The notes below the pieces were generated by a model. That model worked only from the letters and a program-made list of their open reading frames with translations, did no database searches and was not told the origin of the DNA. 64,000 bases of DNA from a virus, in IMG/VR virus record IMGVR_UViG_3300029355_000102. The stretch is one strand, 5' to 3'. Shown piece by piece: positions 3,608 to 39,917 of this stretch. Both the position numbers and the translations under genes were made by a program. Position 1 is the stretch's first letter. Every line of letters begins with the position of its first letter.

Positions 3608-6600
3608 ATGGCTGATCTTGGAAACCTTTACTTCGATATTTTATTCCGTGATAAGACAGCGGAACAACGTAAAAAATTGAAAGCGGAAATCACCAAAGAC
3701 TTGCAGGCAAAACTTGATGTGGGTTTTGACAAGAAGAAGTTGGTTGGTGATATGAAGACTTTGCTTCAAAGTGAGAAGTTTAAGATCAATGTGGTAGTGG
3801 ATAAGGCCAGTACCACACAAGCTGTTCGTGCCGCCTTGCAAGCCGCCGGGTTGAATACAAACTTTACAGCAAGTGATTTACGCGCCGCCAAAGCCGCAGC
3901 CATTCAAACCAAAGCGGAAGCTTCTGCCGCAGCCGCACGTGAGCTTGCGCGACAAAGAGCCGCCCGTGCCGCCAAAGCGGAACTGGATTTGGCTAATGCC
4001 CGTGAGAGATCAGCCAATGCAGCAAGACGGCACATGACAGCCACTCTCAATATGAATGGAGCAATGAACAGTCAATTGAGTATTGTCGGACAATTAAGAA
4101 ATGAATTTTTGGGGCTATACTCCATTTATGCAGCACAGAACTTTTTGCGTGCAATGGTTGATATTGGTGGTGAGTTGGAAAATCAGAAAATTGCAATGGC
4201 CTCTATTCTGCAAGATGAAGGCAAAGCTACAACCATATTCAATCAAATTAAGAAACTGGCTGTTGCTTCTCCATTCGGGATTATGGATTTGAATCAGTAT
4301 GCCAAGCAACTTTCCGCATATTCTATACCATACAATGAATTGTATGATACCATGAAAAGGCTGGCTGATATATCAGCCGGTGTAGGTGTTGATATGGGGC
4401 GTATCATATTGGCCTACGGTCAGATAAAGGCTGCTAAATTCTTGAAAGGAACGGAATTACGACAATTGACGGAAGCGAACATTCCTATGGTGGATAAACT
4501 GGCCGAGCGATTCAGCAAGTTGGAAGGCCGCATTGTCAGTGCCGGTGAAGTGCTTGATATGATCTCGAAAAAGAAGGTTACGTTTGAGGATGTAAAAGAT
4601 GTTCTTTGGGAACTTACGGATGATGGTGGCATGTTTAATAACATGCAGGAAGTTCTTTCAGAATCAGTTAAGTCCAAATGGAAGAACTTGGCTGATGCGA
4701 TTGACATTATGCTTGGTGATATTGCGGAGTCAATGGGTAGTACATTGAAATGGACTGCCGAAAGCCTTACCACCCTTGCACAAAATTGGAAAGAAGTTGT
4801 ACCGGCTATCGAAGCTGCCGTTGGAGCCTTTGGAGTATATAAGGTAGCTACATTTGGCGCAAACCGCTTGATTGGGAATGAAAGTGCGGCTCTTATAAAA
4901 AGTACGCTTGCTGCCAAGCAAAAGGCAGCAGCCAATCTTGTTGTCGCATCCAGTTATCGTACACTTACTAATGCGGAAAAAGGACTTATAGCTTCAAGTA
5001 ATACTATGACAACCGCAGATTGGAAAGCGTTGGCAAGTAGTGGAGCTTTAACTAAGGAGTATGCCTTGCGGTTAATGGCACTTGGAAAATTGAAATCAGG
5101 ACAAGCCGGTCATATTGTGCAGGTACTTGGTATATCTCGTGCTGAAATGTCGGCTGCACTTTCAACAAGTAAATGGCGTGTAGCCATGATCTCATTGGGT
5201 TATGGTATAAAACAAGTAGGAGTTGCATTAAAAGGTTTGCTTTTTAATCCATACATGCTTTTGTTTACTGGGCTTACTGCCATTGCTGAATTATGGTATA
5301 AGTCCGGGCAAAAGGCTGACGAAATGAACGAGCGTATTTCCGAGTTGACAACAAGAGCACAAGACGGTTTCAAGAACCTAACGAAAGAAGCTCAAAAATT
5401 TGCTGATGTTGATCCTTTTAAGGCGAATGATGCCTCACTGATTGCTTCCATTGAAGAAATGAAAACAGCATTAAAGGATTATTCCCCGGTTTGGGCAGAT
5501 ACTTTTAATGAAACGTTTAAGACTGATGATGAAGGAAATACAGTTAAAAGCCTTGCGGAACAATATATATTGCTTCGGAATGCTTTGGATGATACAAAAG
5601 AGGCTTATAGATTGTTGAATGCCATAAGAGGTACATCTGAATATGCGAATGATGCTACTGATGGTTATTTTGACGAAAGCTTTAGTGAAAATATTGAAGA
5701 CTACATCAAGACAGAGAAGCAGATAGACAAGATTATAGACCGTATGGCTGGTAGCTATATAGAGTATTATACTGCCATGCAGAAAGTTATAGCCAAGTAT
5801 GATGATTTTGCTAAAGTCGCTTCGGGCAAATCATTGAAAGAGCAGTTGGATATAATCAAAGAATATCCCAAGGCATTAGCCAGTTTGAATAATGAGTTAC
5901 CTTTCACGGGAGGATATAGGGATGATATTTTTCAGCTGCGGAAGGCATGGAAAAACTCTAAACGTGTTTTTGAGGAAGAAGTATCACCGGATATGCAGAG
6001 TTTCATATCTGAATATAAGTCACGATTACAAGCTGCCGGATGGAATTTAGACAATTTGAGTGACGCTCAAAAAATAGCTATCGGTTTGGATATAAGTTCT
6101 TTCTTGGATCAATTTGAAGAGATGCCGGTAGATATACGGAATTTTCTTAATGGTGAGATTCTTGAAAAACAATTCAATATTAAGATTAATGCTGAATATA
6201 CGGAAACTATTCAGAGCTTGTCAGATTTGCAGAAAAAGTTCAATGAAGCCACAGATGGGCAATTTGAAGCTCAAATAAAGGTTTCTACGGATTCAGAGAA
6301 AATTATTGAAGGAATACAAAAAGCGTATAAGGAAGCTAAAGAGATAACAAATCAATTGAAGCCGGTATTGATTAAAGCCGGAATAGATTTGTCAGGTATT
6401 GGAGCTATTGACTTGTCAAAACTTCCCGACTGGCAGAAGCAAATTGTATCAGATTATAAAAAGGCTTTCGACACAATGCAAGCCGGTGAGAAAGGAGCCA
6501 AAGAAATCGGTTTTTCTCTCACTGATCCAAGTAAGGATAAGAGCAAAAAGGATGCCTTCGCCGAAAGATTGAAAGAACGGGTAAACTTACTAAAGGAGGC

Positions 6601-9088
6601 ATATTCTGAATATAAGAAGTGGATTGACATTGTTGGAAAGAGAGAAGCTGCCAATAAGGTTAAAGGATCGGGTGCTTTTGACTCCTTATTCAAAGGTAAA
6701 GAACCTGTGGATATTGAAAATTATCGGGATGAATTGAATAAGATTCTTAACCAGCTTGACGATAAGACCAAAGAGCGTATAGAATTGAAAGTCTCTATAT
6801 GGAAAGTGCTTCTGGATATTGATGCCAACGCTATGAAAGAAGCTTCGGATAAGGCCGCAAAGGAACTTGAAAGGTACGTGTCTGATGTTTCAAAGAAATG
6901 GGATATATACAAGCAGCTTGTCAATGCCGGTGCAAGTAAGAAGGATGCTTCTTTATACGCTTTCGGAGCATTGTCTGAATATGAGAAGAAATCCGAGGAA
7001 TTAGCTGAAAAGGTAACTAAGAAAATGAAGGATAAAGGGGTATATATACCTTTGACTTTCACCGAACAAGAGGCCACAGAATCACTTGGAGGTAAAGACA
7101 GTGTTTTGTATAAACAGTTTTTCAGTGCATGGAAGGAAGCTAAAGAAGCTATTGAAAAAGATAGTTTGGAAGTAAAGCTGAAAGAAGTTACTGCCCTCAA
7201 CAAATACAAATCTATCGCTGAAAAAATACGGGACTTAAGCGAGAAATATGCTCCCTTAACCGGCACCTTCATTGGTGAAAATAATGAACTTGTTGGGAAT
7301 GTTGAAGGCATGACTCCCGGACAGAAAGCTCTTTTTACCGAATATAAGGAGGAACTGGCAAAACTAAGGGGACAACTGCTTGAACTTCTTCCGGTATGGG
7401 AACAGATATTTGGAGATCAGACCTATAAATCATACGGACAGATACAGCAAGCATCCGATTATGCGCAACAGATTATTGATAATGCTTCTGTAACTAAAAA
7501 CAAGAATGGAAAGCCAACAGCTTTTACTTCTTGGTATTTGGATGAGAATGGTAAACGGATTGATGTTTCAGGAGAATATTCTCAAATTGAGAAGTTAAAG
7601 AAAGCCATACAAGACTTATATAAGGCCGGATTACAGAAGAATCCGTTTGCCACTCTCATAAAAAATATTCGTTCTTTATTCTCCAGTGGAGATAAAGATG
7701 AAAAGGGTACCATAGAAAAGATTGCAGCCATAGGAGAAAGTGCCGCTGAAAGTGCTGATCTTGTCGGCAATTTTGCAGGGCAGATGTCTTCCATGTTCGA
7801 TGCTTTGGGCAATGAGGGTATGGCCGACACGATGGGTAATGTGCAGGATGCCATGTCTTCTATAAGCAATATCGGGCAGGGATTCGCCAAAGGTGGAATA
7901 GTTGGTGGTATTGCTGCCGCTGCCGGTGAAGCTGTAAACTGGATTGGGAAGATAGCACAAGCACATGACAAAAAGCTTGATAAGGCTATTGAAAAAAGTA
8001 AACTTCGTGCTCAACAGTTGCAGTATATATACGAACAGATTGACGGTATTCTTGAACGTTTCTTGGGCAGTGGCACGGAACTAAAACTTGTAGATGCAGA
8101 AAATGACCGTACCCGGTTGAATCAATTAAATAATCAGATTGAGGCAATACGCAATAAGGGGAAGATCAACATCTTCGATTTGATGTCTTTGCAGAAACAT
8201 AAGCAGGAAGCGGAAAAACTTCAAAAACGTGTTTCGGCATACGATGAAGGCGGTGCATACGGGTATCAACGTGCCTTGATGCAAGAACAACTTTCAGAAT
8301 TGGAGAAACAGCGGCAAGCCGAAATTGACAAGAAGAAGACGGATGATAGCAAAGTGGCTGATTATGAGAATCAGATTGCGGAGATGAAACAGCAAATAAA
8401 GGATTTTGCCGAAGAAACGGCTGAATCTCTTTATGGCATTAATTTGAAAGACTGGGCTTCGCAGTTGGGAGATGCCTTGTATGAGGCATGGCAGAAAGGC
8501 GAGGATGGTGCCGAAGCTTTCAAAAATAAGGTTGCCGACATTATGGGTGATGTTATGAACTCCATTCTCAAAATAAGTATTTTGGAACCGGCCATGCAAC
8601 AGCTTCAAAAGATGCTTTTTGGTGAGGATGGAATGAGTGGTTATTTCGGCAAGGATTTCTCTCTTGACGAAAAGGAGTTGGAAAGTATTGCGGACTATCT
8701 AATGGGGGTAAGTGAGAAAACCGATGATTACTATTCCATGCTTGACAAACTGAATAACTATATGGAAAAGAAATATGGTATCAGTATGAAGGAAGAGGAA
8801 GAAGACAGTGGAAGTGGTTTATCTAAAGGCATACAGAATGTTACTGAAAATACCGCTAACCTTTTGGCTTCTTATATAAATGCAATCCGGGCTGACGTGA
8901 GTGTTAAACGGGAGTATGTGCGCAGATTGGTTGAAGAATTGTTCCCGGCCTATAATGTAATAGCACAAGCACAATTACAACAACTGACAATGATACAGAT
9001 AAATACAGCAAAGAATGTGGAATTTGTGGAAGAAATCAGGGATATACTACATAGGAATATAAACGGTGTAAACAAGTTTAATATATGA
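3608..9088 (+). CDS. tail tape measure protein
   Basis: 1826-aa largely alpha-helical/coiled-coil ORF following chaperone pair; TMP-like core motif LAYGQIKAAKFLKG... Confidence 0.85.
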   Translation: MADLGNLYFDILFRDKTAEQRKKLKAEITKDLQAKLDVGFDKKKLVGDMKTLLQSEKFKINVVVDKASTTQAVRAALQAAGLNTNFTASDLRAAKAAAIQTKAEASAAAARELARQRAARAAKAELDLANARERSANAARRHMTATLNMNGAMNSQLSIVGQLRNEFLGLYSIYAAQNFLRAMVDIGGELENQKIAMASILQDEGKATTIFNQIKKLAVASPFGIMDLNQYAKQLSAYSIPYNELYDTMKRLADISAGVGVDMGRIILAYGQIKAAKFLKGTELRQLTEANIPMVDKLAERFSKLEGRIVSAGEVLDMISKKKVTFEDVKDVLWELTDDGGMFNNMQEVLSESVKSKWKNLADAIDIMLGDIAESMGSTLKWTAESLTTLAQNWKEVVPAIEAAVGAFGVYKVATFGANRLIGNESAALIKSTLAAKQKAAANLVVASSYRTLTNAEKGLIASSNTMTTADWKALASSGALTKEYALRLMALGKLKSGQAGHIVQVLGISRAEMSAALSTSKWRVAMISLGYGIKQVGVALKGLLFNPYMLLFTGLTAIAELWYKSGQKADEMNERISELTTRAQDGFKNLTKEAQKFADVDPFKANDASLIASIEEMKTALKDYSPVWADTFNETFKTDDEGNTVKSLAEQYILLRNALDDTKEAYRLLNAIRGTSEYANDATDGYFDESFSENIEDYIKTEKQIDKIIDRMAGSYIEYYTAMQKVIAKYDDFAKVASGKSLKEQLDIIKEYPKALASLNNELPFTGGYRDDIFQLRKAWKNSKRVFEEEVSPDMQSFISEYKSRLQAAGWNLDNLSDAQKIAIGLDISSFLDQFEEMPVDIRNFLNGEILEKQFNIKINAEYTETIQSLSDLQKKFNEATDGQFEAQIKVSTDSEKIIEGIQKAYKEAKEITNQLKPVLIKAGIDLSGIGAIDLSKLPDWQKQIVSDYKKAFDTMQAGEKGAKEIGFSLTDPSKDKSKKDAFAERLKERVNLLKEAYSEYKKWIDIVGKREAANKVKGSGAFDSLFKGKEPVDIENYRDELNKILNQLDDKTKERIELKVSIWKVLLDIDANAMKEASDKAAKELERYVSDVSKKWDIYKQLVNAGASKKDASLYAFGALSEYEKKSEELAEKVTKKMKDKGVYIPLTFTEQEATESLGGKDSVLYKQFFSAWKEAKEAIEKDSLEVKLKEVTALNKYKSIAEKIRDLSEKYAPLTGTFIGENNELVGNVEGMTPGQKALFTEYKEELAKLRGQLLELLPVWEQIFGDQTYKSYGQIQQASDYAQQIIDNASVTKNKNGKPTAFTSWYLDENGKRIDVSGEYSQIEKLKKAIQDLYKAGLQKNPFATLIKNIRSLFSSGDKDEKGTIEKIAAIGESAAESADLVGNFAGQMSSMFDALGNEGMADTMGNVQDAMSSISNIGQGFAKGGIVGGIAAAAGEAVNWIGKIAQAHDKKLDKAIEKSKLRAQQLQYIYEQIDGILERFLGSGTELKLVDAENDRTRLNQLNNQIEAIRNKGKINIFDLMSLQKHKQEAEKLQKRVSAYDEGGAYGYQRALMQEQLSELEKQRQAEIDKKKTDDSKVADYENQIAEMKQQIKDFAEETAESLYGINLKDWASQLGDALYEAWQKGEDGAEAFKNKVADIMGDVMNSILKISILEPAMQQLQKMLFGEDGMSGYFGKDFSLDEKELESIADYLMGVSEKTDDYYSMLDKLNNYMEKKYGISMKEEEEDSGSGLSKGIQNVTENTANLLASYINAIRADVSVKREYVRRLVEELFPAYNVIAQAQLQQLTMIQINTAKNVEFVEEIRDILHRNINGVNKFNI

Positions 9089-9591
9089 TTATGAACAGAT
9101 TGAATAGTGAATTGAGAGGCCATGCCGTATCGTATGGCCTCTGCACACAATGGCAAGGTGACTGGCAAAATAATAAAAGTCAGCAGGAACTAATTGAAAT
9201 GTATATACGAGGCATTGATTTTTGTATTGAGCACGATTATCCGACAGTGGAATATATAAAAGGTAATTTTGACCGGAGTCTGCTTCATCAAAACCATATT
9301 TTTGTTGATGAACCAGTGACCGGAGGCAACAATGGTGTATATGTACTGAACGGTAAATGTTCAGGTAAACTTTCTTTCGGTAAATTTACAGCTGCTACTC
9401 TCCATTTGCGCCATGATAGTGAATTGACTCTTGAAGTGGAAGATTGCGCCAAAGTTTTTGTGAGTGTATATGATCGGGCTAAACTACATGTAAGGCAAAG
9501 CGATGTGGCTAAAGTTTATGTATATGTTCATGGTAAAGATTGCCAAGTGCAATATGAAGGTTACGTGTTGATAAGAGAAAGCCGAGAATAA
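9085..9591 (+). CDS. hypothetical tail protein
   Basis: 168-aa ORF overlapping tape-measure stop (ATGA). Confidence 0.4.
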   Translation: MIMNRLNSELRGHAVSYGLCTQWQGDWQNNKSQQELIEMYIRGIDFCIEHDYPTVEYIKGNFDRSLLHQNHIFVDEPVTGGNNGVYVLNGKCSGKLSFGKFTAATLHLRHDSELTLEVEDCAKVFVSVYDRAKLHVRQSDVAKVYVYVHGKDCQVQYEGYVLIRESRE

Positions 9592-9600
9592 CCCCCGACT

Positions 9601-10047
9601 TTATTTTCCAGTCACACGTTTTGTCAAATAGAACTTGTGAGTTTTGTCTAAGAATACAACGTAAAATGTATCGCCAACCACATGACCGATAATTACTGCC
9701 GATCCATTGATATGTATTCTTGCCCAATTTGCATCTTCCGGTACATTTTTGGGAAATTCAAAAAGGGTCTTTTCTTTTGGTGGAAATGAACCATATATTG
9801 TGAATTTATCTCCATCTATCTGTTGACGCAACGGAGAACAGCAATAACCATGTAGCGTTTCCAATGCGAAACTTAACAACCCTGCGTTTTGCCAGTCCTT
9901 AAAAGCCGAGCCATATTTTTGTGTAGTGTCAAGATATTGGAATGAAATTTTAAAGTTTGAAGTCCGGGCTTCATCATTCACACTTGGCTTCTTCTTGTAT
10001 GGTTCGGCTAATTTGGATTTCTTTTTATACCCCTGCATTTTGTTCAC
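9601..10047 (-). CDS. hypothetical protein; candidate toxin partner of the Panacea-domain protein
   Basis: 148-aa ORF overlapping the upstream DUF4065 gene by 23 nt (translational coupling); no recognisable domain. Confidence 0.35.
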   Translation of the reverse strand: MNKMQGYKKKSKLAEPYKKKPSVNDEARTSNFKISFQYLDTTQKYGSAFKDWQNAGLLSFALETLHGYCCSPLRQQIDGDKFTIYGSFPPKEKTLFEFPKNVPEDANWARIHINGSAVIIGHVVGDTFYVVFLDKTHKFYLTKRVTGK

Positions 10048-10531
10048 TCTTATAGAATGCTTGTACCGTTTTCTTTGAAATTATTTCATGACATTTATCT
10101 GCCTCTGCATAGCCAATACGTGCTTCAAGCCACGGACGTTCATTGTGCGTAGCTCTTTCCAGTTCCAATCCCGTCCAAGTAGATAGGTCTGTCAAAATAG
10201 AAACAATTAAAGTTTGTTGGTCTTGTGTTAGCTTTCCAAATTCCTTATCTACATCTTTTCCGGTAGAATTTGAATAGCTCAATTCCGCATACAGCATAGA
10301 TTTGTCTTTAAGACTATCGTAAACTTTACGACTAACGGGGCCATGCACCCATGCTTCAAAAGAATCTTCGACTAACTCTTGATCGAAATATGCAAGATGA
10401 TATGCATCACAATAAAAAAGTAGCTTTTGCAATTTTAGATGTGACATCGGTCCATAGTGCTTTAGAATATAGTCAGAAAGCACCACAGAATCTATTTTTT
10501 GAAGTTCTTTTGTCTTTTCCATTATAATCAT
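10025..10531 (-). CDS. Panacea-domain (DUF4065, SocA-like) antitoxin-type protein
   Basis: motifs LSHLKLQKLLFYCDAYHLAYF ... FEAWVHGPV typical of DUF4065/Panacea. Confidence 0.6.
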   Translation of the reverse strand: MIIMEKTKELQKIDSVVLSDYILKHYGPMSHLKLQKLLFYCDAYHLAYFDQELVEDSFEAWVHGPVSRKVYDSLKDKSMLYAELSYSNSTGKDVDKEFGKLTQDQQTLIVSILTDLSTWTGLELERATHNERPWLEARIGYAEADKCHEIISKKTVQAFYKSEQNAGV

Positions 10532-10821
10532 CCTTTGAATAATACAAAGGTAGCGCTTTTTTATATAAAATCAAAGAAATCATGTCTATTTAACTTGCTT
10601 TCTTACTTTTAAAGTCAAAAATAGAAGTTGTTGACTGATGTAGTATTATGTGCAATGAAATTGGTTACTTGATTACTTTTAATCATTTTAGAGATTGTCT
10701 ATGTTTAAAATATTCCGTATATTTGTGGCAAAGACAGAGGTCTTGTTTTTATTGCGTCAAAGATTGCATTAAGTATTTTTAATATGCGTACTACTTAAAA
10801 TATGAAGTGTTTTATAAAATA

Positions 10822-10829
10822 AGTAGTAT
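10822..10829 (+). promoter_or_regulatory. Bacteroides-type -7 promoter element TAtaTTTG
   Basis: exact match to TAnnTTTG consensus about 7 nt upstream of the putative sRNA 5' end; a second copy at 10716-10723. Confidence 0.35.
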
Positions 10830-10835
10830 ATTTGT

Positions 10836-10960
10836 GCCCGTAACAAGAAGGGAAGGCTTGGTGCAATCGACATACTACGAAGTTTGAGCCAGTCGTGGCT
10901 ATTCTTAATATATCGCCTGCAACGTCCTTCCCCTTTGGTTGCAGGCTTTATTTTTTTTCT
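10836..10960 (+). ncRNA. candidate small RNA (about 125 nt) bounded by promoter and terminator
   Basis: no ORF; -7 box upstream; 3' end is a 9-bp GC stem (gcctgcaac/gttgcaggc) followed by tttatttttttt. Confidence 0.35.
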
Positions 10961-11337
10961 AAAGCCTTACTTATTAGCGGTTCTATCAGTGCCCACCGCG
11001 CGGACTTGTCACCCGTGAGATAAAAAGGCTCTTTGTCACATAGGATATATCAAAGTAAGATTAAAACCTCAAAGCTGATCCGCTTACCATCAGGAGGTCA
11101 ACCCAAACAACATACATTCTTGCTTTGAAGAATGGCACCGGAGAAAGTGTTGCTTATAGTGGCTGGTTTATTTCTCTGAAAATTCAGAAAAATCGAGTTT
11201 TTGACAATATACACATAGTATAAAGAGAAATAAATAAAAATCTCCTGAACTTGCTTATATGTATGTTTGGGAGAAAAGGGTAAGAAATAGTATGCAAGTA
11301 AAATATAAAAAACATTGTATGAAGACAAATCAAGAAA

Positions 11338-12044
11338 TGGTGCGATACATTGATAGTTTTTCTGTGGTTCAGCGCACGAGTGATGGTTATTTTGACGGAA
11401 CTGAATTGCTTCGGCAGTGGAATAATGTAGAAGGGAATCCGAGAAGGCAAATGAGTAAATTCTTAGAATCTGATAATACATCAGAGTTTTTGAAAGCTCT
11501 TGCAGAGGATGAAAGCCATAGAGCAAAAATGCTCATTGGTGAAAATCAACTACTTATAAAAGTTAAGGGTAGAAATACGAAAGAAGGCAAAACACCCGAT
11601 AAAGTTTGGATGAATCCGCTTCTGTTTATCAAATTTGCTATGTGGATAAATCCGTCTTTTGAAGTCAAAGTATTACGGTTTGTGTACGATGAAATGATTC
11701 GCTATCGAAACGATGCCGGGGATGCTTACAAAGAACTTGGCTCTGCCGTTCAGAAGATAGTTCCTAAAGAGTTTATGCCGAAAGCAATGCAAAAGGTTGG
11801 GGAAGCATTGAATTGGGTTGTGTTTAACTCACATGAGAAAATGCTTCGCAACAAGCAGGGTGATGAAAGCAAACAACGCGAACTGTGGCAGCTTGAAAAG
11901 AAGGTGGCTGATTTAATCAACGAGGGATTCATTACCAACTTCGATAATTTAATATCATACCTTAGAAAACAATATTCAAAAAGGAACTATCCTGCCGTGT
12001 TCCAATTACAGCAAGAAAATACAAATTTTATCCACTATAAATAA
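11338..12044 (+). CDS. KilA-N domain protein (antirepressor-like)
   Basis: DGYFDGTELLRQW ... WMNPLLFIKFAMWINPSFEVKVLRFV matches KilA-N; ORF track start 11259 probably too early. Confidence 0.55.
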
Positions 12045-12053
12045 TAAATCAAT

Positions 12054-12485
12054 ATGGAATTAGTAGAATTTATGAGCAACAAAGAATGCGTTGTAGAAAC
12101 ATTCAAAGTAAATGGTCTTATTGCAAAAGACAATACGGTAACAGAGAAAGGTTTAATGGCTATACAGTTCTATTTAGATATGATAGAGCAAAAGAAGCCA
12201 GAATTAGAAAATTGTCAAACGGCTTATATGTCATGTAGTGAGGTGGAGGAATGGGAAAAGAAAAACGCTGCGGCTTCGGTAAGTTTTGACAGCGGAGGGG
12301 TAGTCGAGTTTCTCCCGATAGAAATGTTCTCAAAAGATGCTAAAATAGAAAAGGGAGGTGGCATAAAAGGTATGCTTATTTCAATGTGCGATTGCGCATG
12401 TGAAGATGAAATATCCGAAATAGTATCTTCAAATGATGAAATTCGTAAATTGAGAGATGCGCTTAACAAATATCTCGAAAGCTGA
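12054..12485 (+). CDS. hypothetical protein
   Basis: 143-aa ORF co-directional with KilA-N gene. Confidence 0.35.
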   Translation: MELVEFMSNKECVVETFKVNGLIAKDNTVTEKGLMAIQFYLDMIEQKKPELENCQTAYMSCSEVEEWEKKNAAASVSFDSGGVVEFLPIEMFSKDAKIEKGGGIKGMLISMCDCACEDEISEIVSSNDEIRKLRDALNKYLES

Positions 12486-12588
12486 ATACTTTTGGCTAAG
12501 AGTGGCAAAATGCACAAATAAATTGGGCTGACTTCGGAGCCAGCCCTAATCTTGTCAAAATAGAATAAAACATTCCATGCGTCTATTA

Positions 12589-12987
12589 CTATTTCTTTTT
12601 CAATTTAGCATAGTTATATAATGTAAGTGTTTTATCATTCATATTTAAACTAAAAACCATTCTTTTTACATCATTTATTACAATAAAAGTGGTGTAATCT
12701 TCTGATGCAATATTATAGTTCCAAGTCCCATTATCAATGTCAAAGTTTTCTATTTTGACAGTTTTATCGGGATTGAATGTAAATTTAGCATCAGAATATC
12801 CCCAATTTGCATCTACCCATATACCACTTATACTATTCCACAAATGCGTAACTTTCCATACTCCAATAATATTTTCATCAAGCCACTCTTTATTTTTATC
12901 AATATAGATATTTTCTTTCTCATTATCAGATGAACACGATGTAAAAAGCATAGATAATATGCTAAAAATAAGTATTATATTTTTCAT
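12589..12987 (-). CDS. lipoprotein (lipobox FTSC)
   Basis: signal peptide MKNIILIFSILSMLFTSC then hydrophilic beta-rich domain. Confidence 0.55.
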   Translation of the reverse strand: MKNIILIFSILSMLFTSCSSDNEKENIYIDKNKEWLDENIIGVWKVTHLWNSISGIWVDANWGYSDAKFTFNPDKTVKIENFDIDNGTWNYNIASEDYTTFIVINDVKRMVFSLNMNDKTLTLYNYAKLKKK

Positions 12988-12988
12988 T

Positions 12989-13375
12989 TTAATTCTGTTT
13001 ATGTTTTGATTTGTAAATAAATGCAGCTTCTGTGATTGTTGCTAATGCTTTCAGTATTGGCATCGCTATTATGTTGGATATTATTCCAGCCAGTCCTATT
13101 ATGAACCACCCCAAATGACGTTCTATTTTATAGGCTTCAAATTCACATGCAAATAGCGTAACAACAAAGATTAAAGCTGATATGATAAGCATTATCACTG
13201 ATAAGTCATATAATCTCCTTAATCCTATGACACCACTTCCTGAAAATTCAAGTTGGTTTTCATTATTAGATTCAACTATTGAACTATCTTTTTTCTTTAT
13301 TGGGTTATACCCACAATACTTGCAAATGGTAAAACTGTCATCATTTGCACATCCACATGATTCACATTTCCACAT
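12989..13375 (-). CDS. zinc-ribbon membrane protein
   Basis: N-terminal CxxC...CxxC then two predicted TM helices. Confidence 0.5.
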   Translation of the reverse strand: MWKCESCGCANDDSFTICKYCGYNPIKKKDSSIVESNNENQLEFSGSGVIGLRRLYDLSVIMLIISALIFVVTLFACEFEAYKIERHLGWFIIGLAGIISNIIAMPILKALATITEAAFIYKSKHKQN

Positions 13376-13378
13376 AAC

Positions 13379-13600
13379 CTATATATCTAAATATTTAATG
13401 CCAAAGTAAAAACCTAACACCACTACAAAAAGTACGTATAGTGGCAATAGCCATGACCCTCCGAAAACACTAAAGCAAATCAGTAGAATCACTACTATCC
13501 AAACTAAAACTCCTAACATATAATAACCTCTTTTATAATTAAATACAAAAGTATTAATAAATAAAATTATGGCAAATGATATTTTTATGTTTTTCAACAT
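13379..13600 (-). CDS. small membrane protein
   Basis: 73 aa, highly hydrophobic, 2-3 TM segments. Confidence 0.45.
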   Translation of the reverse strand: MLKNIKISFAIILFINTFVFNYKRGYYMLGVLVWIVVILLICFSVFGGSWLLPLYVLFVVVLGFYFGIKYLDI

Positions 13601-39754: not shown

Positions 39755-39917
39755 TGGATAAGCCCGGACTCGAACCGGGAACTGTTGCAATCAGGATTTT
39801 CGTTTCTGCTTCCGTTTGTACGTATGTCAAGTGTTAATAGCATATTACCTGACTCGTGATGCTATTCGTGCATTTTTACCACAGAAACTAAGCGTCTTCC
39901 GATTTCGCCACTTATCC
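39755..39917 (-). ncRNA. tRNA-like structured RNA (about 163 nt) with canonical acceptor, D and T arms but a roughly 90-nt insertion in the anticodon region
   Basis: 5' GGATAAG pairs perfectly with 3' CTTATCC; U8; D arm with A14,G18G19,A21; T arm CCCGG-TTCGAGT-CCGGG; discriminator A; internal 7-8 bp hairpins. Confidence 0.4.

Follow-up and report, generated by a model that had tools for sequence, protein, structure and literature searches.

An overlapping Panacea antitoxin gene and PanT cluster T1 partner with a predicted RelE-like fold in a variable island of a LoVEphage-like Bacteroides prophage

The viral DNA recorded in IMG/VR as IMGVR_UViG_3300029355_000102, analyzed here as a single stretch of 64,000 nt (hereafter, the window), carries a two-gene minus-strand cassette among its tail genes. 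The cassette consists of panA (10025..10531), encoding a stand-alone Panacea/DUF4065 antitoxin, and panT (9601..10038), encoding a PanT cluster T1 partner with a predicted RelE/ParE fold. On balance, we favor the view that the two genes form a type II toxin–antitoxin (TA) system, PanAT, in which PanA inhibits an mRNA interferase of the RelE fold and whose expression in the lysogen, driven by a promoter belonging to the pair, serves prophage retention and/or abortive defence. The TA pairing and the fold deserve more confidence than this statement as a whole, and the RNase chemistry and biological role deserve less; the toxicity of PanT, its neutralization by binding, its nuclease chemistry and its role in the host are all matters that we infer.

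Both of the overlapping reading frames proposed in the first-pass annotation of this DNA are present on the minus strand. Read from its first ATG, panA spans 10025..10531 (168 aa), and its partner, read from a GTG at 10047, spans 9601..10047 (148 aa), with 23 nt shared between the two frames. The N-termini of homologs point to other positions for both starts: PanA probably begins at ATG 10522 (MEKTKEL, 165 aa) and the partner at ATG 10038 (MQGYKKK, 145 aa), so that the end of panA would overlap the beginning of panT by 14 nt (10025..10038, minus strand). The DUF4065/Panacea identity suggested for the upstream gene was borne out by the Pfam model SocA_Panacea (PF13274), which matches PanA over residues 34-134 (E=3.5e-20) at 73.4 bits, above the gathering threshold of 25.7, and by phrog_1281 (E=1.5e-32); no extra N-terminal domain was found in the Pfam scan. 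Stand-alone Panacea domains have been shown to neutralize their toxins directly (PMC10440598), and by analogy with validated stand-alone PanAs, the PanA of the window would bind and neutralize PanT.

Evidence that the two genes belong together comes from their joint distribution across genomes. A scan of one genome per species, with the partner alone as bait, yielded 53 loci from the Bacteroidota as well as from Brevibacillus and Ureibacillus, and PanA was encoded directly upstream on the same strand in 52 of the 52 assessable genomes with upstream sequence. The relationship is thus reciprocal, in that the loci were fetched by the partner only, yet every assessable one has PanA upstream. Likewise, a Panacea gene lay immediately upstream of the partner, and overlapped it, in all 13 metagenomic or genomic places located with three different homologs. 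Conservation of the partner beside DUF4065 genes elsewhere, on which the first-pass annotation had made its proposal depend, is therefore clear. The overlap of panA and panT ranges from 1 to 47 nt in 50 of the 53 pairs, with gaps of -8 (17 pairs) and -14 (13 pairs) being the commonest, and the gap falls between -47 and +6 nt in all pairs but one (52/53). When all flanking ORFs were clustered, panA and its partner were the sole genes to recur across loci; the other flanks were unrelated, no third conserved gene was found beside the pair, and a transposase family adjoined it in six loci. Read together, these sequences display the classic TA signature of strict co-occurrence with overlapping genes, the overlap evidently being a form of translational coupling, and the anatomy of the pair is that of an autonomous, translationally coupled two-gene module. 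The core of the original proposal, a Panacea antitoxin gene with a tightly coupled and conserved partner, accordingly stands.

The partner itself represents a sizable family. A database search returned 275 close homologs at 63-99% identity, every one of them annotated as "hypothetical", from Phocaeicola, Bacteroides, Prevotella, Muribaculaceae, Flavobacterium and phage contigs, and an exhaustive profile search enlarged the family to 330 representatives at the 50% identity level. Its most conserved part is the C-terminal block WARIHINGSAVIIGHVVGDTFYVVFLDKTHKF (residues 105-136; 9631..9726, minus strand), which the first-pass annotation had already picked out as conserved-looking and is indeed the core of the family. 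Among 124 diverse members, at least 90% conservation was found for Y82, P86, P96, W105, G118, F125, V128, F129, D131, H134 and F136, and D131, H134 and F136 are each conserved in at least 95% of this Bacteroidota-centred set. A Lys-rich N-terminal tail (residues 1-28, with 8 K/R; 9955..10038, minus strand) is predicted to be disordered, and a basic tail of this kind is found throughout the family. One protein in the representative library (P0236, 163 aa) is a chimera in which the N-terminal two-thirds of a PanA continue, in the same frame, into the C-terminal third of a partner, beginning at ...YFPPKSNF; it looks like the product of a deletion across the panA/partner junction.

Comparison with the published catalog of PanAT systems places this family in a known cluster. 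In the available part of that survey (Kurata et al. 2022; PMC8832971), 1,268 PanAT loci were predicted and their toxins sorted into 88 clusters, of which T1 is the largest; no T1 pair is given there as a validated, complete TA system, and the fold of T1 does not appear in the available part of the PanAT tables. Four T1 pairs in antitoxin–toxin order are listed in Dataset S1 of the same paper for Chryseobacterium oleae DSM 25575, Flaviramulus basaltis DSM 18180 and Brevibacillus gelatini DSM 100115 (each with a gap of -8) and for Pedobacter metabolipauper DSM 19035 (gap of -13). These are the very pairs recovered in our own scan (L025, L038, L050 and L043, respectively), with the same genomes and the same overlaps. 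Moreover, the T1 protein of Salmonella phage Emek (orf161, YP_006560566.1) aligns with the family profile at an hhalign probability of 95.9% (E=6e-9), and the Emek PanA is 31% identical to that of the window; a homolog from Escherichia phage E212, where a similar pair is present, aligns at 96.9%. By these sequence relationships, the partner belongs to PanT cluster T1, and the suggestion that it might be a new PanT-type toxin gives way, the family being already included in T1 as judged from the four listed loci and the Emek homolog. The layout, with a stand-alone Panacea gene first and an overlapping gene for a "hypothetical" partner of ~140-160 aa second, is the same as that described for T1. 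The Bacteroidota branch to which the window belongs is far from the members that have been tested experimentally (from C. cadaveris, the E. coli MOD1 prophage and Emek), and carriage by LoVEphage or by an IS1595-family element does not figure in the available description of the cluster.

The remote pairs of P22-like phages (L071 14764-15637 in Emek and L070 1261-2138 in E212) likewise have a late-gene setting, with the injection genes on one side and the immI/tailspike region on the other.

What kind of protein PanT might be is suggested by its predicted structure. An AlphaFold2 model built from 57 homologs has a mean pLDDT of 82 and a pTM of 0.71, with pLDDT values of 84-93 for residues 31-130 and of 52-71 for the first 30 residues, where the Lys-rich tail (residues 1-28) is modeled at low confidence. 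The model runs from a strand through helices and a short strand to a three-stranded sheet (104-131; strands 104-111, 114-121 and 124-131) and a short C-terminal helix, and the N-terminal strand, two helices and three-stranded antiparallel sheet that characterize the RelE/ParE fold are all present. Its structural matches are RelE, HigB, YoeB and YafQ, with scores that are moderate but very consistent; a Foldseek comparison with viral structures (BFVD) gave no informative match. The first-pass annotation had seen no recognizable toxin fold in this protein, which holds at the level of sequence, where Pfam, NCBIfam and sequences of the PDB were negative, but not at the level of predicted structure. 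PanT is thus predicted to have a RelE-like fold, and as sequence-level confirmation was not obtained, the assignment rests on the predicted structure and on moderate scores.

The putative active site of PanT lies in the conserved block, where the three-stranded sheet is followed by the motif D131-x-x-H134-x-F136. All three residues are located just after the last strand of the model, a position that we take to be equivalent to that of the catalytic His and aromatic residue of YoeB, YafQ and HigB, and the motif is therefore a candidate for the active site. Together with the basic tail, the modeled position of this motif speaks more for a nuclease directed at the ribosome or RNA than for a gyrase poison of the ParE kind. 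Conceivably, PanT could have the RelE/ParE fold and be toxic in the manner of ParE, by poisoning gyrase, or through some other target than mRNA, but we judge this to be quite improbable: RelE, HigB, YoeB and YafQ consistently outscore ParE as matches to the model, a conserved His and aromatic residue after the last strand fits the RNase branch, a basic tail at the N-terminus would be suited to binding RNA or the ribosome, and T1 carries the label "mRNase" in the available tables of Kurata et al. An mRNA interferase thus stays the preferred reading, and the most likely activity of PanT, once freed from PanA, would be cleavage of mRNA on the ribosome and arrest of translation.

PanT differs in several ways from the familiar mRNA interferases of this fold. 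RelE, YoeB, YafQ and HigB are 85-95 aa in length as opposed to ~145 aa for PanT, in which the basic tail takes up 28 residues and a Pro-rich insert another 20 (residues 82-103), and which has no detectable sequence similarity to them; furthermore, their antitoxins are RelB, YefM, DinJ and HigA, whereas that of PanT is a Panacea protein. Panacea is not mentioned in a 2025 survey of RelE/ParE toxins. Nonetheless, Panacea-paired toxins of the RelE/ParE fold are already represented in clusters T14, T28, T58, T59 and T76 in the available part of the PanAT survey (PMC8832971), the assignments there being HigB-2 at 99.7% for T14, YoeB/ParE at 89% for T28 and RelE at 94% for T58 (all by HHpred) and ParE_toxin for T59 (by CDD). 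Along with the PanA-MqsR pairing, these clusters indicate that Panacea already neutralizes toxins of this fold; they differ from the partner family of the window in being recognizable by sequence profiles, which the latter was not in the tests that were run.

Several observations weigh against the proposal that PanT is a RelE-type toxin held in check by PanA. At the level of sequence, Pfam, NCBIfam and PADLOC gave no match for the 145-aa partner, the sole family match being phrog_8366 of unknown function (PHROGs), and none of the 124 diverse relatives matched a toxin family of Pfam or any NCBIfam model. A profile search of PDB sequences with the partner returned only chance matches to uridine phosphorylase (E>1). 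Alignment of the family profile with E. coli YoeB and YafQ by hhalign was not significant (probability <1%), and neither was alignment with a YoeB alignment, which was shallow (Neff 1.4) because its search returned near-identical matches only; the YoeB query was 99% identical to the database entry. Experimental results for T1, as given in the available part of PMC8832971, are mixed. Toxicity in E. coli was seen with the C. cadaveris member, which is labelled an "mRNase" (Table S1), but its own PanA did not neutralize it, and neither the member from the E. coli MOD1 prophage nor that from phage Emek was toxic. Equivalents of W105 and H134 are also missing from the Emek and E212 proteins, the partner of these two phages reading ...WLDREFxLYK, and the candidate motif is therefore not universal in T1. 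Finally, at one locus from a Saprospiraceae metagenome-assembled genome (L054 2217-3440), panA is interrupted by an in-frame TGA (HGPVS*KVF) while panT is intact and retains all of the conserved residues; the stop may result from misassembly, or the locus may be one where the partner naturally goes without a functional antitoxin.

Some of these observations could be accommodated if the cassette were a genuine PanA–partner module in which the partner does not ordinarily arrest growth. It would then be a conditional effector, activated when Panacea senses a trigger from a phage, or a RelE fold reassigned to non-toxic binding of RNA or the ribosome. No toxicity in E. coli was recorded for two of the three T1 members tested, the homologs from enterobacterial phages are without the candidate catalytic His, and one genome combines a disrupted panA with an intact partner. 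Set against this are the toxicity of one T1 member, the at least 95% conservation of D131, H134 and F136 in the Bacteroidota-centred family, and the strict co-occurrence and gene overlap that form a TA signature, and non-toxicity in a heterologous host is in any case weak evidence. The absence of W105 and H134 equivalents could explain why Emek-type proteins are non-toxic, and the branch to which the window belongs retains both residues, in contrast to the enterobacterial-phage branch. A partner that is harmless under ordinary conditions is thus regarded as rather unlikely, and a PanA-controlled toxin is preferred.

The first-pass annotation also raised the possibility that the arrangement is inverted. 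SocA, the antitoxin of the type VI SocAB system of Caulobacter, shares the Pfam domain SocA_Panacea with the PanA of the window and acts as a proteolytic (ClpXP) adaptor rather than as a binding inhibitor. By extension, PanA could be the harmful component or an adaptor, with the 145-aa protein as its antidote or protease substrate, and some PanAs are themselves toxic in E. coli. Such an arrangement is very improbable here. PanA scored 57.8 bits against the SocA equivalog (NCBIfam NF047745), for which the cut-off is 190, and the partner is unrelated to SocB and has a predicted RelE-like fold instead. The toxin-type fold belongs to the partner and not to PanA, all validated PanAs are antitoxins, and the antitoxin-first order, as seen here, is the commoner one (943 of 1,268 PanAT loci in the available part of PMC8832971). 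The idea of inversion has accordingly been set aside in favor of PanA as antitoxin and PanT as toxin.

As the first-pass annotation noted, the pair is oriented against the structural operon, with the tape-measure and tail genes on the plus strand and panAT on the minus strand. A candidate promoter of the Bacteroidetes type, TTTG-N19-TAccTTTG, lies at 10545..10575 on the minus strand, with 22 nt separating its end from the probable start codon of panA. It fits the pattern TTTGN{17,21}TANNTTTG exactly, but as this pattern was matched six times in the window where 2.7 matches were expected, the site on its own is weak evidence. Additional evidence comes from a comparison of 44 distinct loci, of which 31 have the -7 element TAnnTTTG in the 120 nt preceding panA, relative to 62 of 880 control windows (7%), and 12 have the full motif, relative to 5 of the 880. 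The consensus used for these comparisons was that of Bacteroides promoters. A scan for sigma-70 promoters and terminators gave nothing above chance. The candidate site is contained in the 727 nt between the divergent panA and KilA-N genes (10532-11258), where no ORF matches any family.

Possession of a promoter of its own, together with transcription opposite to the late tail operon, would make expression of panAT from the prophage possible, and the pair may thus be expressed in the lysogen. If PanT were then released, the ensuing arrest of translation might stabilize the prophage or abort infection by competing phages.

The carrier of the cassette is, by genome comparison, a temperate LoVEphage-like prophage of Bacteroides/Phocaeicola, with Bacteroides phage BI-TP1 and genomes of the LoVEphage type matching the window at 98-99% identity. 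On the plus strand, the tape-measure gene (3608..9088, 1,826 aa) is followed by a gene for a 168-aa protein (9085..9591), and the distal tail genes resume from 13781 onward. Between them lies a variable accessory ("moron") island (9549..13380) in which panAT is accompanied by a KilA-N gene with a 143-aa ORF and by three small genes on the minus strand. In comparisons with LoVEphage OY725593.1 and with PV4-TP1, a Phocaeicola phage, similarity ends at 9548/9534 and restarts at 13381; both of these phages are without panAT and carry other genes in between, namely Ant, KilA-N and an IS256-type transposase. BI-TP1 is common with the window over 7000-12550, panAT included, and its copy of the pair is annotated as "hypothetical" with a structural match to DUF4065. 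In a protein-level search of 50,697 phage records, a close homolog was found in BI-TP1 only. Given sister phages that have other genes in place of PanAT, and a single match among phage records, the pair is rare accessory cargo in a mosaic island of 3.8 kb and not a simple insertion. The "4-kb insertion" of the first-pass annotation is better called a variable island, as the PanAT-less relatives carry different genes there. Toxins and DUF4065 are not mentioned in the LoVEphage paper, and a literature search found no Bacteroides-specific study of DUF4065.

The KilA-N gene (Pfam E=4.8e-16) and the 143-aa ORF that follows it, which has no family match, occupy 11259-12485 on the plus strand. On the minus strand, the three small genes at 12589-13600 encode a 132-aa protein with a lipoprotein-like signal (…LFTSCSS), a 128-aa protein with a zinc ribbon and hydrophobic segments, and a hydrophobic protein of 73 aa; BI-TP1 has other genes in their place. 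Two short stretches, 11167-11212 (46 nt) and 12514-12551 (38 nt), are 95-98% identical to PanAT-less LoVEphage relatives, where they are ~200 nt apart and downstream of the KilA-N gene that the relatives have. The window has them on either side of the KilA-N and 143-aa module, and they are possibly junction sequences for the exchange of modules within the island. Elsewhere in the window, a weak Rfam tRNA match was found at 39755-39917 on the minus strand (163 nt; 29.5 bits, gathering threshold 29), while ARAGORN detected no tRNA in the whole window.

A second copy of panAT was found within an IS1595-family transposon of 3.76 kb, which occupies several different chromosomal sites in Phocaeicola (L001 951-4706, with the same element in L002-L006). 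Terminal inverted repeats of 23 bp, GGCATTAAGGAACAAATGGACAC / GTGTCAATTTGTTCCTTAATACC, mark the ends of the transposon, which contains a DDE transposase gene, a 51-aa ORF and two minus-strand ORFs (172 aa and 119/150 aa) in addition to panAT; its protein P0004 has index entries in 3,668 blocks of the collection. Its panAT is 86.5% identical to that of the window at the DNA level, with the similarity limited to the two genes, and its terminal repeat is absent from the window. On these two grounds, delivery of the phage copy by that transposon was ruled out. Absent from sister phages and carried by an IS1595-family transposon, panAT is both accessory and mobile.

The cassette is real, mobile and fairly ordinary, and probably serves as an addiction/defence module. 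It is no new kind of system, but adds a member, with a new host phage and a new transposon as carriers, to a PanT cluster that is known, catalogued and still unvalidated. What is new is the predicted RelE-like fold for the T1 cluster, together with a candidate active-site motif that may explain the non-toxic, His-less members of enterobacterial phages, and the finding of two vehicles in abundant Bacteroidales of the human gut, a prevalent temperate phage and an IS1595-family transposon. More speculatively, and with considerable doubt on our part, the Bacteroidota branch of T1 might be a structurally distinct sub-class of the RelE fold, marked by a basic N-terminal tail, a Pro-rich insert and the D-x-x-H-x-F motif and invisible to current sequence models, that serves as a phage-triggered module of abortive infection or superinfection exclusion, with Panacea as the sensor, both in the LoVEphage lineage, which is highly prevalent in the human gut, and on the IS1595 transposon that has spread through Phocaeicola. 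Sister phages with and without the cassette provide a ready comparison for prophage stabilization or defence and, if the proposal is true, the pair would be a tractable first validated T1 PanAT and the first prophage-encoded TA defence in Bacteroides.
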